From Spirochaetia bacterium (lineage in GTDB: Bacteria; Spirochaetota; Spirochaetia; SZUA-6; Bin103), in NCBI GenBank assembly GCA_965203905.1, contig CBDBDQ010000005.1, positions 4,320,001-4,384,000 on the forward strand: DNA of 64,000 nucleotides, given 5' to 3'. Positions 1 through 42,672 of this stretch are shown piece after piece; positions within the stretch are counted from its first letter, which is position 1, and each line of letters begins with the position of its first letter. A program made the translations under genes and the position numbers. The notes below the pieces were generated by a model. The model worked only from the letters and a program-made list of their open reading frames with translations, did no database searches and had not been told where the DNA came from.

Positions 1-49
1 CTGCTGGCCCGTCGGCCGCCGCTGCGAGTCGCCATCCCCGCGGTCCGCT

Positions 50-886
50 CTATTCCTTGAGCGAGCCCGCGGTGATTCCGCTTATGATCTTCCGGTGAAA
101 GATGAAATAGAACAGCAACGGCGGGATGGTAGCCATGAACATCGCAGCCAGCATAGGCCCCCAGTCAGCGTTGTACGGACCGCGAAAGCTCATCAACCCG
201 ACCGCAAGTGTCTTGGCGTGATTGTTCTTCATGATCACCAGAGAGAACAAGAATTCATTCCAGATACCGAGAAAGTTGATGATGAGTACGGTCGCTATCC
301 CACCTAAAGATACCGGCATAACGATCCGACCAAATACTTGCAGATGGTTGCCTCCGTCGATCTTCGCAGCTTCCATGATCTCATTCGGAAACTGGCGGAA
401 GTACGTTTGCAGGAGAAGAATCGAGAAGGGAAGAAAGAAGGCGACGTAGGGCAGGATGAGACCCCAGTAGTTGCTCAGTAGCTTGAGCTGCGCAATGAAG
501 TAATAGAGTGGGATGATGAGCGCATGGACCGGGATCCCGAGCATCCCTACGAGTGCTATGAGAATGACGTTCTTGCCCGGACCGTTGAGCTTTGCCATCG
601 CGTAACCGGCGAGGAGCGCGACCATGGTCAGTAGCGCGAGGGTGGTGAGCGTAACTATTGTGCTGTTCAGGAAGTAGACCGAAATCAGGATGCCGCGCTG
701 ATTGAAGAGCCTCAGGTCATAGTTGTTCAGATAGAGAGAAGTCGGCGGAGCGAAAATACGCGACAATATGTCTGCCGTTGGTTTCAGTGTGGAAAGGGCA
801 AGCCACACTACGGGATACAGTTGGAGAATGGCCCAAAGGATCAGCAGAGCATGTATGATGGTGTGTCCGACGCCGGATTTTCTCAA
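50..886 (-). CDS. Carbohydrate ABC transporter permease (MalG/UgpE type)
   Basis: C-terminal part of ORF 50..1891. EAA motif 'EIMEAAKIDG', 'WNEFLFSL', six TM segments. TTG start at 886 overlaps the TGA of the upstream permease. Confidence 0.9.
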   Translation of the reverse strand: MRKSGVGHTIIHALLILWAILQLYPVVWLALSTLKPTADILSRIFAPPTSLYLNNYDLRLFNQRGILISVYFLNSTIVTLTTLALLTMVALLAGYAMAKLNGPGKNVILIALVGMLGIPVHALIIPLYYFIAQLKLLSNYWGLILPYVAFFLPFSILLLQTYFRQFPNEIMEAAKIDGGNHLQVFGRIVMPVSLGGIATVLIINFLGIWNEFLFSLVIMKNNHAKTLAVGLMSFRGPYNADWGPMLAAMFMATIPPLLFYFIFHRKIISGITAGSLKE

Positions 887-1791
887 TTCGGTTCTGCTCG
901 TCTGACTGTTCCTGCGTAGCCGGACACTCGTATGTAGATGAGCGAAAACACGAGCGCAACGAAGAACATGATGCTGGCGATGACTGAGCCATATCCGAAG
1001 CGAACCAAGCGGAACGCGTCCTTGTACAAGTGCGTGCCGAGTACCTCGGTGGCTCCTGCTGGCCCGCCCTGGGTCATGACCCACACCTGATCGAACACCT
1101 TGAAGCTGAAGATGAGCTGGAGCATGATAATGACGGAGAAAACGTGTCGGAGCAATGGAATGGTGATCGAGAATACCGTGCGCAGTCTGGTGGCGCCGTC
1201 GATCATCGCGGACTCGTAGAGTTGAGGGTTGATGCTCTGCATTCCGGCCAGCAGAAAGATCATCGTGAAACCCGAGTATTGCCACACCGCGGTAGCGATG
1301 ATGGCGGACATCGCGGTGGCCCCGTCTCCGAGCCATACTCGTTGCAGGTGTTCCAATCCAATGGCGGCCAGCAACGCGTTGAGTAATCCAAATGGATCCA
1401 GCACCTTCACCCATAGCAGGCCAGTAATGACAACGGAGATCGAGACCGTAAGGAAGAACAGAAACCGGTAGACCGCCCAGAACCGTATCTTGAAGTCTAT
1501 CAGGAGAGCGAGTACGAAGCCGATGCCCACCGTCCCCACGGTGGCAAAAAAAGAAAACAGCAACGAGTTCTTCAGCGCGGTCCAGAAGAACTCGTCCTTG
1601 GTAAACATTGTCGCGAAGTTCTTGAGACCGATAAAGGTGAGCTTTCCGTAACCCTTCCAGCGAAAGAAGGGTAGCACGAGAGACTGAATCATCGGGTAGA
1701 GGATGAACAAGCTGATGAACAGAAGCGCTGGCAACATGAAGCCATAGAACATCATGTACTCGCCGTAGTCCCGTTTCACGGTGCGTGCCAT
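883..1791 (-). CDS. Carbohydrate ABC transporter permease (MalF/UgpA type)
   Basis: 'LYESAMIDGA' EAA motif, 'FKVFDQVWVMTQGGP', 'GLKNF'; multiple TM helices. Confidence 0.93.
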   Translation of the reverse strand: MARTVKRDYGEYMMFYGFMLPALLFISLFILYPMIQSLVLPFFRWKGYGKLTFIGLKNFATMFTKDEFFWTALKNSLLFSFFATVGTVGIGFVLALLIDFKIRFWAVYRFLFFLTVSISVVITGLLWVKVLDPFGLLNALLAAIGLEHLQRVWLGDGATAMSAIIATAVWQYSGFTMIFLLAGMQSINPQLYESAMIDGATRLRTVFSITIPLLRHVFSVIIMLQLIFSFKVFDQVWVMTQGGPAGATEVLGTHLYKDAFRLVRFGYGSVIASIMFFVALVFSLIYIRVSGYAGTVRRAEPN

Positions 1792-1959
1792 CTGGTAGCG
1801 CCCGTACGCCGCCGCACTCTAATGAAGCATCGGTAGCGGACGCTGGACGGCGGCCGCTCCTGGCGCTGAGACTCGCTGCATCTGTTGTCACTAAGTCCCC
1901 GGCTACCGGCAGCCGATCGAGCTCTCCTGGGACGCGGCTGACGGCGCCGGAGGGTTACC

Positions 1960-3264
1960 TCATTCGAGCGAGCCGACCGCCGTCTGATACATCCTCTCGG
2001 CCGCCTCAGCCGGCGAGATATTACCCTCGAAGATACTGGCAATGGTGTCGTAGTAACCCTGCCGGTGCGGTGGGCTTTGCAAAGCATCGATGATCCCGAC
2101 GTCGCCGTGGGTCCTTACGTCTGCTATGATCCTGCGCACGATCGGATGCACGATTTCTGCGAAGTCGGAAGCGCTGACCGCAGTGTTGTCCGGGATCGCA
2201 CCCATCTCGTAGACGACGCGTGCGTACTCCTTTCCAAACGAGGTGTTCAAGAAGTCGATGATCACCGGCAGCTTGTTTTCGTCGACGTAACTCGGAATGA
2301 TCAGACCGTTGTAGCCTGCTGGTATCGATACGTTGCCGTTGATTGGCGGCAGGTTGAAGTAATCGTACTCAAGGTCGGGTGCTTCGCTGGTGAAGATACC
2401 CGGTGTCCAGCTTCCCGAATTGTAGATAGCCGAAGTGCCATCCACGAATAGCGTTCTAGCGGCCCCGTCATCCATCGCGTTGGCGCCCTTGACGAACACT
2501 TCTGCATCAATGAGTCGCTTGATGTAACCCCATGCTTCCACCGCTGCCGGGTGCCGAAAAACCTCGGCGGTAGCCGGGCTTCGATTCGGGTCTCGCTCCC
2601 AGTTCAAGAACTGTTCAAACTGAGCCATGGGCATCACACGGGCGAGAATATCGTTGAATATTCCCCCGATGGGCCAGCGCGTCAGTACTCCGGCGGACCA
2701 AGCCTCATATCCCGCCGACTTCAGCTTTGCCGCCAGCGTGAAGAGCTCGTCCATCGACTCCGGTGGTACCACACCCACTTGCTTGAAGGTGTCGGTCCGG
2801 TAGAAGTAATGGGGCACGGTAACCCAATCGGTGGTGAAATAGAAATTGCCGAGATCGTCTGTCTCGTAGATCTTGGCACCGACATTCTTCTTGTCGTACC
2901 AACCTTGTTCTTTGGTGATCTCGGTCAGATCGAGCAGCAGCCCGTCGCGCGCCCAGGTGTCGATGGCAGCTCCTCCCCAGTAGAAGGTCAGGTCGAGATC
3001 CTCTGCACCGCTCGCCAGCGCAGAGGTCATAACGTCCTGGATTGCCTGCGCCTCATGAGAGGTGATGTTGATCTTTACGTCCGGGTGTTCCGCTTCGTAT
3101 AGCGCCTTCCACTTCTGGTACATCTCGGTTTGCACGCCGGCCAGGCACCAGACGCTCAGCGTGGTCGGGCCGGATGCGTCTTCGGTGCCGGCAGCAGGAA
3201 GGAATGTAGCGACCAGGCAGAGTGTCAGCGCCAGCAGCGCCGACCGGACTGGCTTGCTATTCAT
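1960..3264 (-). CDS. Carbohydrate ABC transporter substrate-binding protein (SBP_bac_1/8)
   Basis: Signal peptide MNSKPVRSALLALTLCLVATFLPAAG; 'YEAEHPDVKINI', 'LLDLT', 'AIYNSGSW'; SD GAGGAG upstream of ATG 3264. Confidence 0.9.
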   Translation of the reverse strand: MNSKPVRSALLALTLCLVATFLPAAGTEDASGPTTLSVWCLAGVQTEMYQKWKALYEAEHPDVKINITSHEAQAIQDVMTSALASGAEDLDLTFYWGGAAIDTWARDGLLLDLTEITKEQGWYDKKNVGAKIYETDDLGNFYFTTDWVTVPHYFYRTDTFKQVGVVPPESMDELFTLAAKLKSAGYEAWSAGVLTRWPIGGIFNDILARVMPMAQFEQFLNWERDPNRSPATAEVFRHPAAVEAWGYIKRLIDAEVFVKGANAMDDGAARTLFVDGTSAIYNSGSWTPGIFTSEAPDLEYDYFNLPPINGNVSIPAGYNGLIIPSYVDENKLPVIIDFLNTSFGKEYARVVYEMGAIPDNTAVSASDFAEIVHPIVRRIIADVRTHGDVGIIDALQSPPHRQGYYDTIASIFEGNISPAEAAERMYQTAVGSLE

Positions 3265-6621: not shown

Positions 6622-8256
6622 TCAAGCGGACGGCGCGGGCCGGGTTGCAGCAGGCTCGGCGGCAGACTTGCGCGCGAGCTGGGCGCGGATGTCCTCGAAG
6701 CTGATCCCGTAACGGCGCGCCACGTCACGGGCGTAGCTGAGGCCGACCGGCGGGCCGGGCCGGATCCGGTAGGTGCGGCGCACTTCGCCGATACCGTCAT
6801 TGCCGGCGCCGTTGGACTCGATCCCCGCCACCATGCTCACCAGCCGGCTGGCGCCTTCCACTTCCCGGTTGATCGCATCGACCCGTTCCCCCAGCTCGTG
6901 CAGGTGGGTGGCGAACACCGCGCGTGCCCCCAGCAGGCGCAGGCCTCGCACCACGTCCTGCGCCAGGTACAGGCTCTCGCTGGGGCTGGTGCTGGCCAGC
7001 GACTCGTTCATCAGGATCAGGCTGTGCTCACTGGCGGCGCCAAAGATGGCGGACAGGCGGCGCGCCTCCTCCGCCAGGCGGCCGCCCTCGGCGTGGCCGG
7101 GCTCATCTACCGGAAAGTGGGTGCCGACCACGTCCGCCGGACTCACGGTTGCCGCTTCGGCGGGCGCGTAGAGACCGGCCTGAGCCAGCACCTGCAGCAA
7201 GCCCACGGCCCGCGTGAAGGTGGTCTTGCCGCCCTGATTGGGACCGGTGAGCACCAGGATCCTGCCGGTGCCGTCCATGTCGAGATCGTTGCCCACGATG
7301 GCCGCCGCACGTTCCTCGGAGCTACCCAGGGCCAGGTTGACGTTGTACAACCGGCTCACCTGCAGGCGGCGCTCGGCGCTGGGTGCCAGCCGCGGGCGGC
7401 AGATCGGCAGTCCGCGCGCCCGGAGCCGCTCGAAGAGCTGTGCCGCGCCCAAATAGAAGGCGATCTCGCGTTCCAACGAGAGCAGGTCCTGGACCTGCAG
7501 GCGCACGTACTGGCCGAGCGCCTTGGCCAGGGGCCGCGCCACGGCACCCAGAATCCGATCCAGATCGCCGAACAGGGTCCCCATCGCCGCCACCCGCTTG
7601 ATGCTGGCCACCGGCTGGTAGGGCGAGGCGGCGCCGAAGATGCGGCTCAGCAGCGGTCGCTCGGCGAATTTTTCTTCGTGTACGGCCAGCAGCGTGGCTT
7701 CCGAGGGCCGGAGCTGGTCGTCCAGGTTGATGCCGATGCTGACGCTGGCGCGCCGCTTCAGGCCGCCGCGCAGCGCCGGCAGCTCCTGCAGCAGCCGCTG
7801 GTACACCGGGTCCGCCTGGCGCCGCCGGACGAATGCCAGCAGCGCCCGCAGCCCCGCCGACTCCAGCTCCGGGAGCTGGGCGGCGTCAGCCAGCCGCTGC
7901 AGACACGCCACGTAGGTCTCCAGCTCGCCCAGGCGCCACACCGCCTGCTGCAGCGGCGCGCTCTGCTCCTTGCGGGTGGTGGTGAAGAACGCCAGCTCGC
8001 GCAGCATCGGCCGCGCCTCGCGCAACACCTCGCGCAGCGGAGCGGAGCCCAGCACGTCGGCCAGCACGCTCTGGCGGTAGTGGATCGTGGCGACGTCCTG
8101 GCACAGCTCGAAGAGCAGCTCTTCCGGCAGTCCGAACTGCTCCCGCAACGCCGCCAGTCCGGTATCGGCGGCGGCCTGCCGGTCGAGCCGCGGGCGGCCG
8201 GGAGCCGTGCCGGCAGAGGGATAGCACAGGCTCACCCTGTCCTGGGCGGGGTCCAT
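6622..8256 (-). CDS. MutS-related ATPase (domain V only, no mismatch-binding domain)
   Basis: TGPNQGGKTT, 'LAQAG', 'GRLAEE', Walker B 'LILMNES', 'FATH', 'SYARDVA'. Confidence 0.85.
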   Translation of the reverse strand: MDPAQDRVSLCYPSAGTAPGRPRLDRQAAADTGLAALREQFGLPEELLFELCQDVATIHYRQSVLADVLGSAPLREVLREARPMLRELAFFTTTRKEQSAPLQQAVWRLGELETYVACLQRLADAAQLPELESAGLRALLAFVRRRQADPVYQRLLQELPALRGGLKRRASVSIGINLDDQLRPSEATLLAVHEEKFAERPLLSRIFGAASPYQPVASIKRVAAMGTLFGDLDRILGAVARPLAKALGQYVRLQVQDLLSLEREIAFYLGAAQLFERLRARGLPICRPRLAPSAERRLQVSRLYNVNLALGSSEERAAAIVGNDLDMDGTGRILVLTGPNQGGKTTFTRAVGLLQVLAQAGLYAPAEAATVSPADVVGTHFPVDEPGHAEGGRLAEEARRLSAIFGAASEHSLILMNESLASTSPSESLYLAQDVVRGLRLLGARAVFATHLHELGERVDAINREVEGASRLVSMVAGIESNGAGNDGIGEVRRTYRIRPGPPVGLSYARDVARRYGISFEDIRAQLARKSAAEPAATRPAPSA

Positions 8257-8373
8257 GCACCAATGCTAACGAGTGCCTCCCCGTCCTCGCAACGCCCCGC
8301 CCGCGGGTGCCGCCCGCGGCGCGGGCGCCGGCACGCTTGCGACGAATCCGCGCCCGGCGCAGAATGCATCGCC

Positions 8374-9258
8374 ATGGAACAGTCCACGTCAGCGAACGGC
8401 TCCTGGAACGACCATCGTCTCGCCCTGGCCGAGGCCGAAGCGTTTGCGCGTGACGGCGTTCTGGTGCTGCCGGACCGCCTTCCGGAGCAGGTGACCGACC
8501 GCCTCGAGGAGGCCTTCGACAAGGTGTGGGCCGCGCAGCGGGCGGCACACAACAAGAGCAAGCTGGACAAGTTCAACATGTACGATTTTCTCAGCCAGGA
8601 CGAGCGCTTCCTGGAGATGATCGACTGGCCGGCCAGCTTCCCCAAGGTGGTGGACATCCTGGGCTGGAACATCCAGATCTACCACACTCACATGATGATC
8701 ACTCCCGGCGCGGGACAGGGCGCCGACCCGGGGAAGCGCGGCTGGCACCAGGACAGCGACCGGCTCAACCGCGAGCTGGAAACCGATCCGCAGCCGCGCG
8801 TATCACTGAAGGTGGCCTTCTTCCTGAGCGATTGCAGCGTTGCCGGACGCGGCAACTTCGGCGCCGTCCCCGGCAGTCACCTGACCAATGCGCTGGTAGA
8901 TCCGGAGCGCCGAGACGTCGACCCGCCGGGCGCCACCGTGGTGCTGGTGCCGCGTGGCGGCATGGTAATGTTCGACCGGCGCATCTGGCACACCGGGACC
9001 GAGAACTACGCCGACTTCCCGCGCAAGGCTTTGTTTTATGGGTACAGCTACCGCTGGCTGCGGCCGCGTGACGACATGCAGGTGACGCACTACCTGGAGC
9101 GCTGCGATCCGATCCGCCGCCAGTTGCTCGGCACCAGTCCGAGCGGCGGCCATGGCTACACCTCGCCGCAGCCGGGGGATGTCCCGTTGCGTGCCTGGCT
9201 GGAGCAGAATCCGACCGATCCCGCGGTCGCCGCGGCGGCCGGCACGCCCACCTCGTAG
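8374..9258 (+). CDS. Phytanoyl-CoA dioxygenase (PhyH) family Fe(II)/2OG oxygenase, copy A
   Basis: 'FARDG', 'GWHQD' (HxD), 'VPGSH', 'FDRRIWH', distal Arg in 'PRKAL'. Confidence 0.9.
   Translation: MEQSTSANGSWNDHRLALAEAEAFARDGVLVLPDRLPEQVTDRLEEAFDKVWAAQRAAHNKSKLDKFNMYDFLSQDERFLEMIDWPASFPKVVDILGWNIQIYHTHMMITPGAGQGADPGKRGWHQDSDRLNRELETDPQPRVSLKVAFFLSDCSVAGRGNFGAVPGSHLTNALVDPERRDVDPPGATVVLVPRGGMVMFDRRIWHTGTENYADFPRKALFYGYSYRWLRPRDDMQVTHYLERCDPIRRQLLGTSPSGGHGYTSPQPGDVPLRAWLEQNPTDPAVAAAAGTPTS
8392..9258 (+). repeat. Direct-repeat copy 1 of an 867-bp gene duplication (partner 10266..11132)
   Basis: Colinear with constant offset 1874 and no indels; 30 of 288 residues differ by manual count. Confidence 0.9.
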
Positions 9259-9313
9259 CCGCCCCGCCGCCGTACTTGCTTTGCAGCGGTGGCCGGCGAC
9301 AGAATGGAGCGTC

Positions 9314-10237
9314 ATGGGTAAATCCACGTTCACCGCGGACGGCAGCGCGCCGTTCGTGTTCGACGACAACTGGGAGAACTTTGGCAATCTGCGGCCGGAC
9401 TCTCGGCGTCTGAGCGAGACCAACGGCGCCGGTCTCCCGGTGGTCCAGCTTACCGAGGAGCAGAAGTTCGCGTTCGATACTCAGGGATGGTTGTGCATCC
9501 CCGGGGTGCTCGACGAAGCGGAACTGGAACCGATGCGGGAGTTCTGCTATCGGCTGAAGGATGATCCCGGATCGCTGCCGCCGCATCAGCGCACTCCCAT
9601 TGCGGGGCCGCTGGAGGTGTTGGTCGATCACCCCGTGGTGGTAGGATTCTGCAACGAGTTCCTCTCCTATCCTCGCCTCGACGGCGCCGACCATTACGGT
9701 TTCCGCTTCGAGACCAGCTTCCTGTACTATCGCGAATTGGGGATGGGAAAGTTCAGCCCGCACAACGGCAACGGAGTGTGGCGGCTGCCCGGCAGCTCGC
9801 ACGAGTATCGCGCCATCCCCGGCAAGGCCTACTCCGGACTGACGCGCTGCGTGTGGGAGCTCAACCCGGTGCTCGCGGGGGACGGCGGCACGCTGTTCGT
9901 GAACGGCAGCCACAAGGCGGCCTACACCTTGCCGCCCTCGATCTACGAGCAGGAGTCGCCGCTGTGGAGCAGCTACTCGTGTCCGGCCGGCTCGGTGGTC
10001 TTCTTCAGCGAGGCCACCACCCACAGCGCCCGTCCCTGGACCAACCCGGAGGTGCCGCGGGTGGCGATCTTCAACCAGTACAACGGTATCGGCAGCCGTT
10101 TCCACTGGTGGGAGCCGCCGCGCGAGCTGCTGGAATCGATGCCCAGAAAGCGCCGCTCCCTGTTCCGTCACGCCTACGGCGAGGCGGCCAACACGGGACT
10201 GGAAACGCGCAACCTGTTCGCCCGTGCGCTGGGTTGA
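9314..10237 (+). CDS. PhyH family Fe(II)/2OG oxygenase with HxG motif
   Basis: 'EEQKFAFDTQGWL', 'SPHNG' at the HxD position, 'GGTLFVNGSHK', 'FFSEATTH', 'PRVAIF'. Confidence 0.85.
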   Translation: MGKSTFTADGSAPFVFDDNWENFGNLRPDSRRLSETNGAGLPVVQLTEEQKFAFDTQGWLCIPGVLDEAELEPMREFCYRLKDDPGSLPPHQRTPIAGPLEVLVDHPVVVGFCNEFLSYPRLDGADHYGFRFETSFLYYRELGMGKFSPHNGNGVWRLPGSSHEYRAIPGKAYSGLTRCVWELNPVLAGDGGTLFVNGSHKAAYTLPPSIYEQESPLWSSYSCPAGSVVFFSEATTHSARPWTNPEVPRVAIFNQYNGIGSRFHWWEPPRELLESMPRKRRSLFRHAYGEAANTGLETRNLFARALG

Positions 10238-10241
10238 CGCG

Positions 10242-11132
10242 GTGCCTTCGGCTGACGGCGGCGCCGCGAACGGCGCCTGGAACGACCACCGCCTGACCCT
10301 GGCCGAGGGCGAGGCGTTTGCCCGTGACGGCTTCCTGGTGCTCCCGGAGCGCCTGCCGGAGCAGGTGACGGACCGCCTCGAGGAGGCATTCGACAAGGTG
10401 TGGGCCGCGGAGCGGGCGGCACGGGGAAAGGGCGAGCTGGAAAAGTTCAACATGCTCGATTTCCTCAGCAAGGACGACCGCTTCCTGGAGATGATCGATT
10501 GGCCGGCCAGCTTTCCCAGGGTGGTCGACATCCTGGGCTGGAATATCCAGATCTACCACACCCACATGATGTTCTCTCCCGGCGCCGGCCAGGGCGCCGA
10601 TCCGGGGAAGCGTGGCTGGCACCAGGACAGCGGCCGCCTCAATCGCGAGCTGGAGACCGATCCGCAGCCGCGCGTATCACTGAAGGTAGCTTTCTTCCTG
10701 ACCGACTGCAGCGTCGCGGGACGCGGCAACTTCGGCGCCGTCCCCGGCAGTCACCTGACGAATGCGCTGGTGGATCCGGAGCGCACCGACGTCGACCCGC
10801 CGGGAGCCACCGTGGTGCTGGTGCCGCGTGGCGGCATGGTGCTGTTCGATCGGCGCATCTGGCACACCGGGACCGAGAACTACGCCGACTATCCGCGCAA
10901 GGCGCTGTTCTACGGGTACAGCTACCGTTGGCTGCGGCCGCGCGACGACATGCAGGTGGCGCACTACCTGGAGCGCAGCGACCCGATCCGGCGCCAGTTG
11001 CTGGGCACCAGTCCGAGCGGCGGCCGCGGCTACACCTCGCCGCAGCCGGAGGATGTTCCGTTGCGCACCTGGCTGGAGCAGAATCCGACCGATCCGTCGG
11101 TCGCTGCCGCCGCCGGCGCGCCACCCTCCTAA
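10242..11132 (+). CDS. PhyH family Fe(II)/2OG oxygenase, copy B
   Basis: About 90% identical to 8374..9258; 'GWHQD', 'VPGSH', 'IWH'. Start uncertain (GTG 10242 or 10224). Confidence 0.88.
   Translation: MPSADGGAANGAWNDHRLTLAEGEAFARDGFLVLPERLPEQVTDRLEEAFDKVWAAERAARGKGELEKFNMLDFLSKDDRFLEMIDWPASFPRVVDILGWNIQIYHTHMMFSPGAGQGADPGKRGWHQDSGRLNRELETDPQPRVSLKVAFFLTDCSVAGRGNFGAVPGSHLTNALVDPERTDVDPPGATVVLVPRGGMVLFDRRIWHTGTENYADYPRKALFYGYSYRWLRPRDDMQVAHYLERSDPIRRQLLGTSPSGGRGYTSPQPEDVPLRTWLEQNPTDPSVAAAAGAPPS
10266..11132 (+). repeat. Direct-repeat copy 2 of the 867-bp gene duplication
   Basis: Colinear with 8392..9258. Confidence 0.9.
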
Positions 11133-11212
11133 CGCCCGTCGCCTTGCCGTCAGCGCAACCGCGCAACCGCACGACTTCACGCGCGGGGGGCGACATCGCC
11201 GAGCCCGCCGAG

Positions 11213-12355
11213 TTGGTGCGTGCGATTCACGCCGCGCCGCAGCAGACGGTGCTGGAGTTGGCCGGCGGCACCCAGGCGCTGGCGTGGCTGCACGCCGTGG
11301 GCGGTTCTTCACGCACGGTGCTGGAGGCCACCGACCGCTACAGCGCGGCCTCGCTTGCCGCGCTGCTCGGCCAACCGCCGGAGAAGGCGGTGACCCGCGA
11401 CGTCGCCGTCGCCATGGCGGCCGCCGCACGCCGCCGGGCGCGGGACCTGGCCGCACCGGGAACCCCGGTGGTGGGGGTGGCGTGCAGCGCGGCACTGGCC
11501 AGCGACCGGCCGCGGCGCGGGGCGCACCACGCGGTGGTGGCGGTGGCCGATGCCCTGGGTGCCGCGGTGTGCGAGTTGGAGTTGGCCAAGGGGACGCGCA
11601 CCCGCCGCCAGGAGGAGGCGGTGGTAAGCCTGCTGCTGCTGACCGAGCTGGCCGCGGCCTGCGGGGTAGCGGTGCCGGAGCCGGCGGCCGCCGCCGCTCC
11701 TGGTGACGCGATACAGCGCGGGTTCCGGCCCGCACCACGGTTCGCCGCTCTCGGGGCCGGCGCCGCCGACTGGCTGCTGCTGGACGCCGCCGGCTGCGTC
11801 GTGGAGCAGGGCAGCGGCTGGGATCGCGTGGCCCTGCTGTCCGGCTCCTACCATCCGCTGCATGGCGGCCACCTGGCGCTGGCCGCAGCCGCCGCCGCGC
11901 TGCTGCGGCGCCGGGTGGTGTTCGAGCTGACCCTGGTCAACGCCGACAAGGCCGCCATCGGCCTGCCGGAGGCGCGGCGGCGTGCCGCCCAGTTCGCCGG
12001 CCGCGCGCCGTTGCTGCTGTCACGCGAGCCGCTGTTCGCGGCCAAGGCGGCGTTGTTTCCGGGGGCGGTGTTCGTGGTCGGCGTGGACACCGCCGCGCGG
12101 CTGGTCGACCGGCGCTTCTACGGCAACTCCGCCACCGCGATGCAGCGGGCGCTGGCGGACGTGGCGCGCTACGGCTGCAGCTTCCTGGTCGCCGGGAGAC
12201 TGGTCGAGGAGCGCTACCGCACCCTGGCCGACCTCGCTCTGCCGCTGCCGCCCGCGCTGCGCGCGCTGTTCCGGGAGCTGCCCGAGGAATCGTTCCGCTG
12301 TGACCTCTCCTCCAGCGAAATCCGTGCCCGCGCTACGCAGCGGGCCACCAGGTGA
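11213..12355 (+). CDS. CinA/PncC-like N-terminal domain fused to a HIGH-motif (NadD-like) nucleotidyltransferase
   Basis: 3' part of ORF 10400..12355. N-domain 'GGTQALAWL...GSSRTVLEA..YS', 'VAVAMA', 'GVACSAALAS'. C-domain 'SGSYHPLHGGH', 'NADK', 'FVVGVDT', 'DLSSSEIR'. Start uncertain (TTG 11213 or ATC 11195). Confidence 0.75.
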   Translation: MVRAIHAAPQQTVLELAGGTQALAWLHAVGGSSRTVLEATDRYSAASLAALLGQPPEKAVTRDVAVAMAAAARRRARDLAAPGTPVVGVACSAALASDRPRRGAHHAVVAVADALGAAVCELELAKGTRTRRQEEAVVSLLLLTELAAACGVAVPEPAAAAAPGDAIQRGFRPAPRFAALGAGAADWLLLDAAGCVVEQGSGWDRVALLSGSYHPLHGGHLALAAAAAALLRRRVVFELTLVNADKAAIGLPEARRRAAQFAGRAPLLLSREPLFAAKAALFPGAVFVVGVDTAARLVDRRFYGNSATAMQRALADVARYGCSFLVAGRLVEERYRTLADLALPLPPALRALFRELPEESFRCDLSSSEIRARATQRATR

Positions 12356-13665
12356 AAACGCGCCAGGCCGGTGCGGCACCGCCGGCCGGACGCATCTACT
12401 ACGGCTGGGTCATCGTCGCCAGCTTCTTCGTGCTCAACATCGCGGGGCAGGCCAGTGGCACCCTCAACTTCGGCCTGTTCGTCATTCCCATCAGCGAGGA
12501 GCTGGGGCTGTCGCGGCAGACGATCGGCTGGGCGCAGACCGGCCGTTTGTGGGCGGGCGGCCTGAGCGGCGTGGCGATCGGCTGGTGGCTGGATCGCTAC
12601 GGGCCGCGGGTGCCGGTGCTGGTGGCGATCGTGGTCGCCACCGTCGGGCTGCTGGTGCTCGCGCGCGCGCAGTCGGCGGCGGTGCTGTTCGGCGTGCTGC
12701 TGGCCCTGGGCGCCAGCGGCTGGACCGCGGCAGGCGGCGGCGCACTGTTCGCCACCGTGCCGGTGGCCAAGTGGTTCATCCGCCTGCGCGGCCGCGCCAC
12801 CGGCATGGTGCAGCTCGGCCTCGGTGTCGGCGGCGCCGTGTTCCTGCCGCTGACCCAGGTGCTGATCAGCAATCACGGCTGGCGCTCGGCCTGGGTCACG
12901 CTCGCCTGGCTGTCGGCTGCCATGCTGCCCCTGGTGCTGTTGCTGCGGCGCCAGCCCAGCGACCTTGGCCTGGAACCGGACGGCGGCCCCGGTGGAGCGT
13001 CGCGCCGGCGCACAGGGAGTCGCGCGCGATCAGCCGGCGAAGCTGGGTGCGCGCCACCCGCGGCCACCCACGCCTGGACCCTGCGCGCCGCCGCGCGCAC
13101 CGCGACCATGTGGCAGCTCAGCGGGGCGTTCGCGATCCTCGCCTGCCTGCTCGGTGCAGCCAGCGTGCACCGGGTTCCACACTGGGTGGAGCTGGGCTTC
13201 AGCCCCGGCACCGTGTCCTTCGCCTTCGGCGTCGATGCCGCTACCGCCACCATCACGGCGCTGGCGGCGGGGTTCCTGGTGGAGCGCCGGCAGCCCCGGA
13301 TCGTCGGCGCGGCTTCCTGCGGCCTGTTCTGTGCCTCCTTGCTGCTGATGGTGCTCGCCCGGGCGTGGCCACCGCTGCTGTTCTCTTCCACCGTGCTGTT
13401 CGGGGCCGGCGTCGGTCTCAACATGGTGGTGCAGGGGGTGATCTGGGCGCAGTACTACGGCTGGCGTTTCGTCGGCACCATCCGCGGCGTGGTGCTGCCG
13501 CTGATCGTGCTTGCCGGCGGGCTGAGCGCCCCGCTGGCCGGCGCTCTGCGCGATGCCAGCGGCAGCTACCGCATCTCCTGGTTGGCCGCGCTGGTGCTGT
13601 GCGCCGTGGCCGGCGTGTTGATCTTCAGCACGCAACCGCCGCGGCCGGCGGCTCGCGCCGGTTGA
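12352..13665 (+). CDS. MFS transporter (OFA/MCT-like)
   Basis: 'RIYYGWVIV', motif A 'GWWLDRYGPR', 'KWFIRLRGRATG', about 12 TM segments; GTGA overlap with the upstream gene. Confidence 0.9.
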   Translation: MKTRQAGAAPPAGRIYYGWVIVASFFVLNIAGQASGTLNFGLFVIPISEELGLSRQTIGWAQTGRLWAGGLSGVAIGWWLDRYGPRVPVLVAIVVATVGLLVLARAQSAAVLFGVLLALGASGWTAAGGGALFATVPVAKWFIRLRGRATGMVQLGLGVGGAVFLPLTQVLISNHGWRSAWVTLAWLSAAMLPLVLLLRRQPSDLGLEPDGGPGGASRRRTGSRARSAGEAGCAPPAATHAWTLRAAARTATMWQLSGAFAILACLLGAASVHRVPHWVELGFSPGTVSFAFGVDAATATITALAAGFLVERRQPRIVGAASCGLFCASLLLMVLARAWPPLLFSSTVLFGAGVGLNMVVQGVIWAQYYGWRFVGTIRGVVLPLIVLAGGLSAPLAGALRDASGSYRISWLAALVLCAVAGVLIFSTQPPRPAARAG

Positions 13666-13738
13666 CCGCGCACCGGGCGGTCGCGGCAGGCGTGCCGCGG
13701 TTGCGGCACAGCGCCGGCCGCGCCACTATGTCGCCGCC

Positions 13739-14737
13739 ATGCCTGAGTTCTCCGACCTGTGCCTGACCACCATCGAGACCCACACCGCGGGCCACCCCAC
13801 GCGGGTGGTGGTGGATGGCCTGCCGGCCTTCGGCGGCGATTCCGTGGCCGCGCAGCGGGCCTGCGCCCGCGCGGAGCACGATGCGTTGCGCACCCTGCTG
13901 TGCCGCGAGCCGCGTGGCCATGAGGCGATGTACGCCGCCTACGTGGTGCCGTCGCGGGTCGCCGACGCGGGCGTGATCTTCTGCAGCCAGGTCGGTTACG
14001 ACGACATGTGCGGCCACGGCACCATCGGCGTGGTTACCGCCCTGCTGCAGGGCGGCCGCCTGCCGCGCCGTGCCGAGGTGCGCCTGGAGACGCCTGCCGG
14101 GGTAGTGACGGCGCAGCCCCGGTGGCAGGGAGAGCGGGTGGCCGCGGTGAGCTTCGACAGCGTGCCCGCGTTCGTGCAGCACCGCGACGTGACGGTGGAG
14201 CTGCCCGGTGTGGGCACCGTGCACGGCGACATTGCCTTCGGCGGCAACTGGTACCTGTACGTGGACGCCACCGAGGTGCAGCAGGAGATTGCGCCGGCCA
14301 GCGTCCCGGCGCTGCTGCGACTGGGCAACACGCTCAAGAAGGCGTGGAACCGCGACGGCCGGCTCCAGCATCCGGAGCAGGAGCACATCGCCCGCGGCCT
14401 GATCGGCGTCTCGTTCTACGGGCCGCCGCGGCGCCGGGCGGACGCCCACCAGGCCAACCTGGTGGTGGAAAGCGCGACCTTCTACGACCGCTCCCCCTGC
14501 GGCACCGGCACTTGCGGGCGCATGGCGGTGCTGCACGCCCGCGGCGCCCTGGCGGTGGGCCAGGAGTTCCGCAACGAGGGCATCACCGGTGGGCTGTTCA
14601 CGGCCCGGATCACCGCCGAGACCAGTGTAGGGCGGCTGCCGGCGGTGCAGCCCCGGCTCACCGGATCGGCGTGGGTGATGGGGCACGCGGAATGGAGCCT
14701 GGATCCGACCGATCCCCTCGGCAGCGCCGGCTGGTAG
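13739..14737 (+). CDS. Proline racemase / hydroxyproline 2-epimerase family protein
   Basis: 'HTAGHPTR', 'EPRGH', 'MCGHG', 'FGGNWY', 'DRSPCGTG'; both catalytic Cys present. Confidence 0.9.
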   Translation: MPEFSDLCLTTIETHTAGHPTRVVVDGLPAFGGDSVAAQRACARAEHDALRTLLCREPRGHEAMYAAYVVPSRVADAGVIFCSQVGYDDMCGHGTIGVVTALLQGGRLPRRAEVRLETPAGVVTAQPRWQGERVAAVSFDSVPAFVQHRDVTVELPGVGTVHGDIAFGGNWYLYVDATEVQQEIAPASVPALLRLGNTLKKAWNRDGRLQHPEQEHIARGLIGVSFYGPPRRRADAHQANLVVESATFYDRSPCGTGTCGRMAVLHARGALAVGQEFRNEGITGGLFTARITAETSVGRLPAVQPRLTGSAWVMGHAEWSLDPTDPLGSAGW

Positions 14738-14781
14738 CGAAGCGGGCGCGCGGCCGGCTCAAGCGGAGTAATGCCGCGGCA

Positions 14782-15360
14782 TCACCCGGCCTGGGACGAG
14801 CCGGTCGCACCGGGCGCCGGCGGTGACAGCGTCCGCAGCCACCGCGAACGGCGCACGAAACGTTCGGCAAACAAGCCCAACAGCAGGGCGGACACGGTCC
14901 CCGTGATCAGGAACGCGGGCGCGATCAGCCAGGCGCTCTCGCCGAAGATCAGCAGGCGCGCGCTGCCGATCTGCGCCAGGTTGCTGGCAAGTGCGCCCAT
15001 GATGCTCACTCCGACCAGGGAGATGTGGGCGCCCAGCGTGCGATGCAACAGCAGCATGGTGGCGCCGCTGGCCACCGAGCCGGCGGCTGAGAACAGCACG
15101 ATGTAGGAAAACAGCGTCCCCTGTACCAGTCCCTGGCCGACGACTTTCAACGCCACAAGGGTGAAGATCTCGCGCGGTCGCAGCACGGTGAGGCCGACCA
15201 GCAGCGGCAGGTTGGCCAGCCCCAGCTTCAGGAACGGCACCGGTTTCGGTATGACGTGCTCGACGGTGGCCAGGAACAGCGCCAGTGCGGCCAGTAGCGC
15301 GACGTGGCGCCGCCGTTCGTCAACCGCTTCGGATCCGGCCGTGTCGGCAGCGCTGCTCAC
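14782..15360 (-). CDS. Gx transporter family protein (heptaprenyl diphosphate synthase component I-like)
   Basis: 'EHVIPKPVPFLKLGLAN', 'SLVGVSIMGALASNLAQ'. Confidence 0.85.
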   Translation of the reverse strand: MSSAADTAGSEAVDERRRHVALLAALALFLATVEHVIPKPVPFLKLGLANLPLLVGLTVLRPREIFTLVALKVVGQGLVQGTLFSYIVLFSAAGSVASGATMLLLHRTLGAHISLVGVSIMGALASNLAQIGSARLLIFGESAWLIAPAFLITGTVSALLLGLFAERFVRRSRWLRTLSPPAPGATGSSQAG

Positions 15361-15382
15361 TGCGAACCCGCCGCCCGCTGCC

Positions 15383-16537
15383 TCATAGCGCCTCTAGGAT
15401 CTCCTCGGCGCGGTCGGTCCGCTCCCACGAAAACCCGTCCCGCCCGAAGTGTCCGTAGGTGGCTGTCGGGCGATAGATCGGCCGGGCGAGATCGAGCGCA
15501 GCGATGATGCCGCCGGGGGTCAGGTCGAAGAGACTGCGCACCACCGTCTCGATGCGCTGCTCCGGCACCTCCCCGGTGCCGAAGGTGTTCACGTAGAGCG
15601 ACACCGGCTCGGCCACCCCGATGGCGTAGGCGATCTGCACCTCGCACTCGCGGCAGATGCCGCTGGCGACGATATTCTTGGCCACGTAGCGCGCCATGTA
15701 CGCCGCCGAACGGTCTACCTTGGAAGGATCTTTGCCGGAGAAAGCGCCGCCGCCGTGGCGCGCCTTGCCGCCGTAGGTGTCCACGATCAGCTTGCGCCCG
15801 GTGAGGCCGGTATCGCCGTGGGGGCCGCCGACCACGAAGCGCCCGGTAGGATTGATCAGGAAGCAGAGGTTGTCGCCGAGCATCTCGACCGGCAGCGCCG
15901 GCTTGATCACCTCCTCCACCAGGCCTTCGCGCAGTTGCTCCTGATCTACGTCCGGCCGGTGCTGGTGGGACAGTACCACCGTCTCGATGGCCGCCGGCCG
16001 GCCATCGCCGTAACGCACCGTCACCTGGCACTTGCCGTCGGGACCGAGGAACGGCAGCACGCGTTGCTTCCGCACCAGCGCCGCGCGCAGCATGATGGCG
16101 TGCGCGAAGTCGATTGGCGCCGGCATCAGGTGCGGCGTATCGGAGCAGGCGTAGCCGAACATCAGCCCCTGATCGCCGGCGCCCTGGGCCCTGGCGGAGC
16201 CGGGGTCGACCCCGCGGGCGATGTCGGGCGACTGCGCGTGCAGCTTGTTGAGCACCTTGCAGGTCTGGTAGTCGATGCCCAGGGCCGAGTCGTCGTAGCC
16301 CGCGTCGCGCAGCACGTCGCGCGCCAGTTGCTCGGGATCGAACGAGCTGCGTGACCTGATCTCGCCGCCCACCAGGATCAGCCCGGTGGTGGCGAACACC
16401 TCGCACGCGACCCGTGCCTCGTGGTCGCCCGCCAACGCGGCGTCCACCACCGCATCGGAGATCTGGTCGCACAGCTTGTCGGGGTGGCCTTCGCCTACGC
16501 TCTCCGAGGTGAACAGGTAGTCGCCGCGCTGGTACAT
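15383..16537 (-). CDS. metK: Methionine adenosyltransferase
   Basis: '[13 protein letters not shown]', 'QGAGDQG', 'GGGAFSGKD'. Confidence 0.97.
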
Positions 16538-30462: not shown

Positions 30463-32208
30463 TCAGGCGCCGCCGGCAGCCGCCGGGTGAGCCGCTGCGG
30501 CCACCTGCACGATGGCGTCCAGCTTGGCCCGTATCTCCGGGTCGATCTCCGCTTCCGGCACGTGTTCGGCCAACTCCGGCAAGGCGCCGTTGGCCGGCGG
30601 GTGCGGCTGTCCCAGCGCCGTGAAGTAGGCGTGGAACAGGGGCCGCAACACCTCGTCGCTGGCGTCCAGGTCGGCGCTCCACGGTGAACCCGCGCCGCGC
30701 CGCTGCAGCGTCGACCGGATTTTGTCGATGGCGTGGCGCATGGCCAGCCGGCGCGTCTCTCCCTCCGCCGGCGAGAACAACGGACCCAGTTCGTCCGCCG
30801 CCACCGATGCCGCCGCATACGCTTCCAGCGTCGCCTGCGAGCACACGTAGTTGGCGAGCTGGCGCCGGCCCCAGCGCAGGGTGTGGAACTGCGGGGGGTC
30901 CTCCTCGCCGCCGGCTCCGCGCTCGAACAGGGCGACGGCATGCACCTCCGGATGGGCCTCCCGCAACCCCAGGAAATGGCGCCTGGCGGCTGCGGGCTGG
31001 TGGGCCACGTAGTGCACCAGCGGCCGCCGCAACGCCTCCATGGCGGCTGCGTGGCCAATGCGCCGCGCCAGCGTGCGCAACACCGCCAGCTCGGCGGCGT
31101 TCCCCAGGTAGAGTGCCCAGCCGGTCTCGTGGGCCTGGGCATAGTGCTCGAATCCGATCTCGCGCAACGCCTTCAGGACCTGGCTGCCGCGGTCGTCCAC
31201 CCGGTGCGGCCGGCCGACGAAGGCGACCACGGTGTCCCGGTCCACGGCTTCATGCAGCAGCACCTCGGAGTGGCTGGCCACGACGATCTGGCTGCCGTTG
31301 GCGTTGGCCACCTCGCGCAGCAGGTGGTAGGTCTGACGCTGGCGCAGGACTTCGAGGTGGGCGTCGGGCTCGTCCAGCAGCAGCACGGCGCCCGGGTTGG
31401 CGTACAGGTAGGCCAGCAACAGCAGCGTCTGCTGCAACCCGCGCCCGGCCGAGGAGAGGTCGAGGGTGCCGCCGCGCTCGCGGTACGCCATCACGATTTC
31501 GCCGCGTTCGACCAGGTAGCGGGGTGGCAGGAGCTGCACCCGGAACAGGAACTGCATACGGCTGACGAGCTGCCGCCAGCGGTCTTCCGACGCCTCGTGG
31601 ATCTGGTAGCACAGGTTGCGCAGCACCTCCGCGGTGCGCCCCTCGCCGATGCGCACGTTGACCGCGCCGGAGTCGAGGCGGGTCTCGGTGGTCGCCAGAC
31701 CCGACAGCGGCGGCAGCAGGGCAACGCGCAGCCGCTGCGCCTGCTCCGGAATCTCCATCCGCGCACCGGCCTGGGCCGGGTCCAGGCGCAACGGCCGGCA
31801 GTAGAACGACTCCTCGTTGGCGTAATCGAACTCCAGACCGCAGCGCCAGGCGCGACCCCTGCTCATTCCATCGACGACGATCTCGATGCGGATGTTGCGG
31901 GTGCTGCGCTCGCCCGTGTCGCGGGCGCGTACGTCCCGCACCCGCAGATCGCGCCACAACAGGTTCGCCTCCGGTACCGGAAGCGTGACCAGATCGCGCC
32001 GATTCACGGTGATGCCGGGACGCACCTCCGGCATCTTCCCGTGGCGCTTCTCGTGCCAGCGCTTCAGCCCGACGTCCCACAGCGCGAGCGCCTGCAGCGC
32101 CGACGTCTTGCCCGAGTTGTTGGGGCCGATGAAGACCACCGGGTTGCCCAGCTCGATGACAACTTCGTCGAAGCGTTTGAAATTGCGAACGGTCAGTCTG
32201 GTCAGCAT
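30463..32208 (-). CDS. OLD-like ABC ATPase with a degenerate C-terminal TOPRIM domain
   Basis: 'MLTRLTVRNFKRF', GPNNSGKT, 'AGRGLQQ', 'LLLDEPD', 'ASHS'. C-domain 'LYLGNAAE...ALFER...RRQLANY'. Confidence 0.82.
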   Translation of the reverse strand: MLTRLTVRNFKRFDEVVIELGNPVVFIGPNNSGKTSALQALALWDVGLKRWHEKRHGKMPEVRPGITVNRRDLVTLPVPEANLLWRDLRVRDVRARDTGERSTRNIRIEIVVDGMSRGRAWRCGLEFDYANEESFYCRPLRLDPAQAGARMEIPEQAQRLRVALLPPLSGLATTETRLDSGAVNVRIGEGRTAEVLRNLCYQIHEASEDRWRQLVSRMQFLFRVQLLPPRYLVERGEIVMAYRERGGTLDLSSAGRGLQQTLLLLAYLYANPGAVLLLDEPDAHLEVLRQRQTYHLLREVANANGSQIVVASHSEVLLHEAVDRDTVVAFVGRPHRVDDRGSQVLKALREIGFEHYAQAHETGWALYLGNAAELAVLRTLARRIGHAAAMEALRRPLVHYVAHQPAAARRHFLGLREAHPEVHAVALFERGAGGEEDPPQFHTLRWGRRQLANYVCSQATLEAYAAASVAADELGPLFSPAEGETRRLAMRHAIDKIRSTLQRRGAGSPWSADLDASDEVLRPLFHAYFTALGQPHPPANGALPELAEHVPEAEIDPEIRAKLDAIVQVAAAAHPAAAGGA

Positions 32209-42444: not shown

Positions 42445-42672
42445 AGCCCACTTCCCGCAGTTTCGTCGATGTCCGACTGTCGGCATAAGCGTAGGCGATC
42501 CCCGGCGTACTCACAGCGGTAGGGGCGGGTGCTCCGCTCCTCCCTATCGTATCCGACCAGATGTGCACTATCTGAACTCGCAACCCTTGCGGTACGTCGT
42601 CGTACACGTATACATCCGCAAAATCGCCTCGAAGTTGCTTCTGGCGCTTCGAGAAATGTTGACTACAGCCAA
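42445..42672 (-). pseudogene. 5' relic of an STM4504/CBY_0614-type (AbiJ-related) gene
   Basis: TTG at 42672: MAVVN(I), one base short, then FSKRQKQLRGDFADVYVYDDVPQGLRVQIVHIWSDTIG. The rest of the gene is lost. Confidence 0.65.

Follow-up and report, generated by a model that had tools for sequence, protein, structure and literature searches.

Six co-oriented genes, henceforth referred to as g1 to g6, occupy positions 8374–14737 of the plus strand in a 64,000-nucleotide stretch of a Spirochaetia bacterium genome (contig CBDBDQ010000005.1, positions 4,320,001 to 4,384,000 of the forward strand), henceforth referred to as the window. The genes encode three PhyH-family Fe(II)/2-oxoglutarate (2OG) oxygenases (g1–g3), a two-domain fusion of a PncC/CinA-like fold with a NadD-like nucleotidyltransferase fold (g4), a major facilitator superfamily (MFS) transporter (g5) and a proline-racemase-superfamily enzyme (g6). 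The original prediction, made from the sequence of the window, had proposed that they constitute one uncharacterised pathway that makes or degrades a modified cyclic amino acid or nucleotide conjugate. A single new pathway was not supported, because the array is conserved within one genus only and its flanks are equally syntenic there. The reading best in keeping with the gene calls, folds, motifs, and phyletic and synteny patterns, to which a probability of about 0.5 is assigned, is that the six genes are a genus-specific, probably co-transcribed mosaic array of three functional units with no dedicated pathway. These units, namely the PhyH oxygenases, g4, and the MFS transporter together with the racemase homologue, would happen to share one transcription unit in this genus of apparently sponge-associated Spirochaetia.

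Six loci of the genus were compared (genomes G001, G004, G007, G008, G009 and G010), and all six carry the order PhyH–g4–MFS–racemase between a MutS-like gene and the genes for heptaprenyl diphosphate synthase component I (HepI) and MetK. The flanking DinB, ABC, MutS, HepI, MetK and Mfd genes are equally syntenic within the genus, so the conservation of the array does not exceed background. The core order was kept only within this single genus of Spirochaetia metagenome-assembled genomes (MAGs). In one further genome, G005 (90% complete), g4, the MFS gene, the racemase gene and the MutS-like gene were not found at the thresholds used, and it provides no usable comparison. Co-orientation and short gaps are features of the array, while linkage beyond background synteny or in distant lineages was not observed.

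An obligatory six-gene pathway is unlikely because, in the sister genus, three of the four core orthologues have different neighbours and the fourth is lacking, and the g4 family occurs without the others nearly everywhere. The g4 orthologue (~46–54% identity) was present in all 13 sister-genus genomes. In each of ten loci it is flanked by a YmdB-like gene on one side and an HlyD/MacB efflux set on the other, with LptA/LptC, RpoN and HprK beside it, and the five remaining array genes were all absent from its vicinity. The g3-type PhyH orthologue was found at 71–79% identity in 10 of the 13 genomes, with one more at 50%. It belongs to an operon of overlapping genes that also encodes an M14 carboxypeptidase and a GNAT acetyltransferase of the Eis-like kind (L029 5018–10236, L032 6696–10426), which is followed by an FGGY kinase in L029, the sole locus in which that position was scanned. 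No g4, MFS or racemase gene was detected within ~9.5 kb of this PhyH orthologue in nine loci. The MFS orthologue (66–73% identity, 13/13 genomes) is accompanied by PfkB kinase, GH4 glycosidase, sulfatase, ThuA and TauD genes, with no g4, racemase or g3-type orthologue nearby in any of six loci. No racemase orthologue was identified at E ≤ 1e-20 in the 13 sister-genus genomes or in 17 genomes from seven other families of the order. Conversely, the genes that partner these orthologues in the sister genus are scattered in the genome that carries the array (G000). The original prediction would be refuted, by its own criterion, if the genes were unlinked in related genomes; the sister genus comes near to this (three loci and no racemase), whereas co-transcription within the genus is plausible.

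The same separation was seen in metagenomes. A set of 80 metagenome loci containing the g4 family was collected, 46 of which extend for 2.5 kb or more on one side. A tblastn comparison of the window proteins with all 80 loci returned no PhyH protein, no racemase and two MFS proteins of 31–32% identity. Pfam analysis of the 121 immediate neighbours gave a heterogeneous collection, including Hexapep transferase, HD domain (in five cases with an OB domain), PMT_2, UbiA, UbiD, L25 and GyrA proteins, with one MFS_1 match, no PhyH and no Pro_racemase.

Genes in the array were called by third-position GC frame analysis together with open reading frame and start listings. The intergenic gaps from g1 to g6 are, in order, 55, 4, 11 (or ~80), −4 and 73 nt, where the third becomes 80 nt if g4 starts at 11213 and the fourth reflects a 4-nt overlap of the g5 start with the g4 stop. 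The earlier description of six co-oriented genes with gaps under ~85 bp and one overlap was therefore accurate (−4 to 73 nt, or 80 nt with the later g4 start), as were all six gene-type calls, including the PncC-like/nucleotidyltransferase fusion, which was borne out by AlphaFold2 (AF2) and Foldseek. A run of six co-oriented genes is, by itself, nothing out of the ordinary for a bacterial genome. The likely promoter site of the array, judged from gene layout, is the divergent intergenic region at 8257–8373 between the MutS-like gene on the minus strand and g1 on the plus strand.

Internal promoters had also been proposed as a sign of a loose aggregate, but none was found by a consensus scan: positions 8000–15500 contain no sigma-70-like site against 0.3 expected from shuffled sequences, although the consensus may not fit this organism. 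A single terminator-like hairpin inside g5 is within shuffle expectation. The g4 and MFS genes overlap by 4–10 nt in four of the six genus loci, according to heuristic gene calls. In four metatranscriptome libraries, assembled contigs at least 88% alike covered all six genes, and single RNA contigs bridge PhyH–g4 (X19, from a relative with one PhyH copy), g2–g3 (X22 and X18) and MFS–racemase (X20). Such assembled contigs show neither a single transcript nor the strand, and RNA libraries may hold DNA; taken as a weak hint, they make co-transcription of the array within the genus plausible.

Several observations weigh against a mosaic array lacking a dedicated pathway. The tight co-directional packing and the conserved 4–10 nt g4/MFS overlap have the appearance of a functional operon, and selection for co-regulation could have joined four genes that lay at separate loci. 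The two genera differ in gene order throughout: in the sister genus, distances from ~50 kb up to megabases separate the MutS-like gene from MetK. The sister-genus layout therefore does not reveal the ancestral state, and insertion and dispersal are indistinguishable by an "empty site" comparison. A PhyH paralogue of 35–36% identity adjoins the MFS orthologue or lies within 5 kb of it in three of six sister-genus loci, which hints at a recurring link between oxygenase and transporter. PhyH-fold hydroxylases of free proline also exist (H11, 7e08) and are among the fold matches of g3. As a separate observation, one sister-genus locus (L129 4005–12860, genome G021) combines the MFS orthologue with a sulfatase, two PhyH paralogues, ThuA, a Meth_synt_2-like gene, TauD and PfkB, and this block looks like a sulfated-sugar or organosulfonate utilisation region.

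The fusion protein g4 is the member of the array whose family was traced most widely. The reading frame extends from 11144 to 12355 on the plus strand, with 11213 or 11216 being the likelier start because homologues begin near residue 22–25. Pfam returned only a sub-threshold CTP_transf_like match (18.4 bits against a cut-off of 21). An AF2 model built on 38 homologues had a predicted local distance difference test score (pLDDT) of 88.2 and a predicted template modelling score (pTM) of 0.85. Foldseek assigned the N-terminal half of this model to the CinA/PncC fold (2a9s, 4ct8 and 6mr3 at E 2e-5 to 4e-5; with 5kol, E 2e-5 to 2e-4) and the C-terminal half to the NadD fold (3dv2, 3e27 and 1kaq; E 5e-5 to 2e-4).

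The C domain has the fold, the HxGH motif and the C-terminal motif in common with NadD/NMNAT enzymes (3dv2, 1kaq). A G-S-Y-H-P-L-H-G-G-H segment and a C-terminal SS(S/T)xIR segment are conserved across the family, H240, G242-H243, S389, S390 and R394 are invariant in the 38-sequence alignment, and ATP-binding motifs of both the (H/T)xGH and the SxTxxR type are present. In contrast to NadD, the g4 C domain is always fused to a PncC-like domain, and the best score of g4 against the NCBIfam NadD equivalog was 17.5 bits where the cut-off is 214. The genome contains a canonical NadD elsewhere (TIGR00482, 139.7 bits vs 112.45), as well as CoaD, RibF and a full-length CinA. These genes rule out g4 as the housekeeping NadD, and the canonical NadD and full-length CinA indicate that g4 is an additional enzyme.

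The N domain resembles AtCinA (2a9s) and Thermus thermophilus CinA (4ct8) in fold (E 2e-5; template modelling score to target 0.67) and retains counterparts of Gly46/Ser48 and Tyr58 of AtCinA with the same spacing. It differs from CinA in being fused to a nucleotidyltransferase rather than to a MocF/COG1058 domain, and in lacking the Ser/Lys dyad. The catalytic dyad of AtCinA is given as Ser31/Lys63 in the available part of its description (PMC5384747). The equivalent g4 positions, mapped by spacing from the conserved Glu, Gly-x-Ser and Tyr instead of by structural superposition, are Leu39 and Leu71, and they are hydrophobic in all 38 aligned members. Sequence comparison was less sensitive to this likeness: no Pfam CinA (PF02464) match to g4 was obtained at E ≤ 0.01, a g4-family profile searched against PDB sequences recovered the nucleotidyltransferase half only and no CinA chain, and hhalign of that profile with the genome's own CinA gave nothing (probability 0.1).

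The g4 family is widespread and unnamed, with a fixed two-domain architecture. At least 371 matches were found among the scored candidates, all with "hypothetical" or generic names, and 685 representatives of 50%-identity clusters were collected at E ≤ 1e-30, nearly all of them ~380 residues long and matched end to end. No published description of a PncC-fold/NadD-fold fusion was found in the literature searched, most subscription journals being outside that search; the accessible portion of one CinA paper (PMC3855486) mentions only MocF-CinA proteins and N-terminal extensions. The fixed architecture together with unrelated neighbours indicates that, most likely, this family fulfils its own function. 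The NadD-like domain would most likely adenylylate a pyridine-type mononucleotide with ATP. As the Ser/Lys dyad is not there, the PncC-fold domain probably binds a nucleotide without deamidating it.

The racemase homologue g6 (13739–14737, plus strand, 332 residues) is a clear member of its superfamily, with a Pfam Pro_racemase score of 320.5 bits against a cut-off of 27. The nearest solved relatives are 7pb3, 6j7c, 1w61 and 6r76 (E 1e-64 to 4e-56). Alignment to these four structures places the catalytic residues at Cys91 and Cys254, within MCGH and DRSPCGTG motifs, which confirms the Cys/Cys state claimed by the original prediction. The scores of g6 nevertheless fall below every NCBIfam equivalog cut-off, at 305.9 of 540 for the dehydratase of trans-3-hydroxy-L-proline (t3HypD), 276.9 of 556 for proline racemase (ProR) and 257 of 376 for 4-hydroxyproline 2-epimerase (4HypE). 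Since Cys254 is retained, the Cys-to-Thr replacement typical of dehydratases does not apply to g6. That replacement appears to occur in 6r76, which is labelled a proline racemase and by alignment has Tyr at the R1 position and Thr at the second catalytic position; Thr at this position is the state described for trans-3-hydroxy-L-proline dehydratases in the available text of PMC4113996.

The substrate-discriminating sites set g6 apart from all of the characterised types. According to the available parts of two earlier studies (PMC1964878, PMC4364671), R1/site 1 (TcPRAC Phe102) is Phe in ProR, Val or Ser in hydroxyproline epimerase (HypE) and Phe in TlProR; R2/site 4 (TcPRAC Cys270) is Cys or Leu in ProR, His in HypE and Leu (L221) in TlProR; and site 5 (TcPRAC Phe290) is Phe in ProR, Cys or Tyr in HypE and Trp in TlProR. 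The corresponding g6 residues are Tyr65 (R1/site 1), Gly223 (R2/site 4) and Glu244 (site 5). Tyr65 and Glu244 depart from the Phe pair at TcPRAC F102 and F290 that marks proline racemases, and Tyr65 and Gly223 depart from the Val/Ser at R1 and His at R2 that mark 4-hydroxyproline 2-epimerases. Tyr or His at R1 was noted by Goytia et al., in the portion of their paper available, in proteins that have neither activity. As judged from these residues, the g6 pocket is predicted to fit neither proline nor 4-hydroxyproline by the published rules. Thus g6 shares the Pro_racemase fold family, both cysteines and the MCGH/DRSPCGTG motifs with TcPRAC (1w61), AsProR (7pb3) and PaHyPRE (2azp) but differs from them at Tyr65, Gly223 and Glu244.

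The complete combination Tyr-Cys-Gly-Glu-Cys was found in 78 of 114 g6 homologues of at least 300 residues taken from the best 120 matches (21/22 at ≥60% identity, 14/16 at 48–60% and 43/76 below 48%), and so is a subfamily marker and not an oddity of one genome. Neither D-proline reductase genes nor hydroxyproline-catabolic genes were found near g6. A search of the reference genomes for close relatives of g6 returned only six same-genus loci and one protein of 40% identity in a Tepidanaerobacteraceae bacterium MAG, too few for distant neighbourhoods of the subfamily to be read. In that MAG (L044 3846–11454), the relative comes right after three Gly_reductase-family genes and before TauE and SNF transporter genes. 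The Pfam Gly_reductase family includes D-proline reductase, and such an arrangement is the classic Stickland context for a genuine proline racemase.

The transporter g5 (12352–13665, plus strand, 437 residues) scored 105.9 bits against Pfam MFS_1 (cut-off 33.4). NCBIfam scores of 87.7 bits for SfMCT (cut-off 320) and 56.4 for the oxalate/formate antiporter family place it closest to the organic anion subfamilies for lactate and oxalate/formate. Together, g5 and g6 would bring a substituted proline-like imino acid into the cell and invert it at the alpha-carbon.

All three oxygenases exceed the Pfam PhyH (PF05721) gathering cut-off of 22 bits. Gene g3 (10242–11132, plus strand, 296 residues, 50.0 bits) is the copy in the genus-conserved position, and g1 (8374–9258, plus strand, 294 residues, 44.1 bits) is an extra paralogous copy of it. 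The two proteins are 89% identical (258/289 residues), the likeness of their DNA begins and ends with the coding sequence, and G000 and G003, its closest relative, are the only genomes seen to carry two PhyH copies; g1 arose by recent duplication of g3. Residues H127, D129, H208 and R219 of g3 are invariant in a 36-sequence alignment, and the translation of g1 has the equivalent H125-x-D127 and H206, giving both proteins the facial triad H-x-D...H with an Arg. R219 is at the position that we take to be the 2OG-binding Arg.

The AF2 model of g3 (pLDDT 86.3) adopts the double-stranded beta-helix (DSBH) fold. Foldseek matched it at E 1e-12 to 1e-14 to 8zyb, FtmOx1, AndA, SptF, H11, GriE, KanJ, EctD and HygX; these matches all score alike, and no substrate class is therefore singled out. 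The g1 and g3 proteins resemble EctD (3emr), H11 (7e08), GriE (5nch) and KanJ in DSBH fold, H-x-D...H triad, Arg and size. Homologues of g3 bear the source annotation "ectoine hydroxylase-related", but by sequence the link to EctD is marginal (E 0.0025) and none of the ect genes is nearby. With 3339 homologues at E ≤ 1e-10 in the sequence database, g3 belongs to a conserved family of its own of ~280 residues, whose members in named MAGs from other phyla (Poribacteria, Latescibacteria, Gemmatimonadota and a Caldilineaceae bacterium) are ~51–58% identical to g3. The likeliest role for g3 and its duplicate g1 would be to hydroxylate a small polar metabolite derived from an amino acid or peptide. 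The PhyH family is strongly expanded in G000 (examples at C5:7130393-7131178, C5:4034765-4035475, C5:7700759-7701535 and C5:564096-564785), where 15 sequences matched g3 at E ≤ 1e-10; the 22 family relatives with any match have 2–17 per genome at the same threshold.

The remaining oxygenase, g2 (9314–10237, plus strand, 307 residues, Pfam PhyH 30.6 bits), is only ~25% identical to g1 across ~100 residues. The nearest solved relative by sequence is HygX (4xc9/4xcb; E 7e-9 to 9e-9), the Fe/2OG oxygenase that forms the orthoester of hygromycin B (4xc9, 4xca, 4xcb). The two have in common the PhyH fold and an unusual metal motif, which in g2 reads H150-N-G152...E233-A-T-T-H237 (H-X-G...E-X3-H) and is kept in four of four orthologues examined and in the two closest paralogues. 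The match to HygX, however, covers only ~195 residues at low identity, and the aminoglycoside/orthosomycin biosynthetic context of HygX is not present around g2: its neighbours are the PhyH paralogues, g4, the MFS gene, the racemase homologue and housekeeping genes, with no orthosomycin or aminoglycoside biosynthetic genes among them. Gene g2 is present in three of the six genus loci and, by whole-genome search, in five of ten genus genomes. A remnant covering residues 1–70 at 80% identity lies in a 101-residue open frame beside PhyH in G001 (L015 ~11655–11912), which indicates that g2 was lost in the G001 lineage; it is dispensable within the genus. It would be an accessory enzyme of the HygX type in which the carboxylate ligand is relocated. 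Five g2-type paralogues were matched in G000 at E ≤ 1e-30.

Other readings of the array assign its genes to a common purpose. A fair rival, though less likely than the mosaic, is that a single class of substrate is handled by the PhyH enzyme or enzymes, the MFS transporter and the racemase homologue, with g4 as a bystander; a host-derived proline- or pipecolate-like imino acid could, for example, be imported, hydroxylated and epimerised at C-alpha, either for catabolism or to yield a D-hydroxy-imino acid. The tight packing and co-orientation of the genes agree with such a scheme, as do the RNA-library contigs in relatives that span MFS–racemase and PhyH–g4 and the free-amino-acid hydroxylases H11, GriE and EctD among the g3 fold matches. 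The polar Tyr65 and Glu244, found where proline racemases have Phe, would suit a substituted polar proline analogue. Sponge or coral metagenome labels on runs holding small shares of the stretch point in the same direction, and host collagen would supply proline and hydroxyproline. Yet the Foldseek matches do not discriminate between substrates, the sister-genus PhyH orthologue is coupled to a peptidase and an acetyltransferase with no racemase orthologue, and the sister-genus MFS orthologue sits among sugar and sulfatase genes. The usual partners in hydroxyproline catabolism, given as D-amino acid oxidase, a dihydrodipicolinate synthase-like protein and aldehyde dehydrogenase in the available text of PMC4113996, are not in the cluster. 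A more speculative and distinctly improbable proposal combines two parts: the g4 family may be a hitherto undescribed pyridine-nucleotide enzyme in which the silent PncC-like domain captures or gates a mononucleotide for the fused adenylyltransferase, and the Tyr/Gly/Glu racemase subfamily may epimerise a polar or cationic proline analogue that in this genus is supplied by the PhyH and MFS proteins, making the core four genes a new imino-acid pathway.

A pathway that uses all six genes, with g4 activating a phosphorylated intermediate with NTP to give a nucleotide-conjugated oxidised cyclic amino acid, is very unlikely. The overlap of the g4 stop with the MFS start, both here and in four of six genus loci, would favour it, and g4 has intact HxGH and SSxxxR motifs and is not the housekeeping NadD; the two-domain architecture of g4 is fixed in the 685 cluster representatives, however, and its neighbours show no relation to either oxygenases or racemases at 80/80 metagenome and 10/10 sister-genus loci. 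Halogenation had also been raised by the original prediction. Fe/2OG halogenases of the SyrB2, WelO5 and BesD type have an H-x-A/G motif, no protein carboxylate ligand and a halide site. A natural-product cluster in which g2 is such a carboxylate-less halogenase could appeal to H150-x-G152 in place of H-x-D/E, conserved in the g2 orthologues. The translation of g2 appears to combine this halogenase-like element with E233-x3-H237, and the H-X-G...E-X3-H variant with a relocated carboxylate is, in the available part of a 2026 review (PMC13374393), that of HygX, an oxidative cyclase. The halogenation hint is weak because the motif belongs to an oxidative cyclase in the nearest characterised and best solved relative of g2. 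In addition, g1 and g3 have H-x-D, g2 is missing from three of six genus loci, and no carrier protein, nonribosomal peptide or polyketide synthase, or tailoring genes are nearby, leaving this reading with scarcely any credibility.

As a pathway candidate the array matters little, its linkage being local and no common substrate being indicated. It is not shown to be a new kind of system and consists of new members of known superfamilies. Its value, with the mosaic reading retained, is as a pointer to three large families without an assigned function, namely the ~280-residue dioxygenase, the dyad-less PncC/NadD-fold fusion and the racemase subfamily. If any one of the three were assigned a function, many genomes of uncultured marine and soil organisms could be annotated better.

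The array is flanked upstream by a DinB-like gene, an ABC ATPase and a divergent MutS-domain-V protein, and downstream by the convergent HepI and MetK genes followed by Mfd; the remainder of the window contains mixed housekeeping genes. The MutS-like protein (6622–8256, minus strand, 544 residues) consists of MutS domain V alone and is not the canonical MutS; a paralogue of 35–39% identity also occurs in each of four sister-genus genomes examined. G+C across the array region is 0.66–0.77, with values of 0.73–0.77 for g4–g6 and 0.66–0.69 for g1–g3. A foreign origin of g4–g6 was considered on account of their higher G+C and not adopted, as third-position GC is alike in the two groups. A defence-system reading was likewise rejected, PADLOC having assigned none of the six proteins to a family. 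Look-ups in the ESM Atlas gave back no more than the family names. At the start of the window (1–3000), where ABC permease genes are located, G+C is 0.54–0.57, compared with 0.62–0.77 over the next 20 kb. Sponge or coral metagenome labels were attached to DNA runs each holding less than 0.2 of the stretch's words, which provides a habitat lead only. Further along, the window encodes an AAA_15/AAA_21 ATPase (30463–32208, minus strand) and a Schlafen AlbA_2 + HATPase_c_4 protein (42663–43952, minus strand), both of types that are frequent in defence or mobile contexts.

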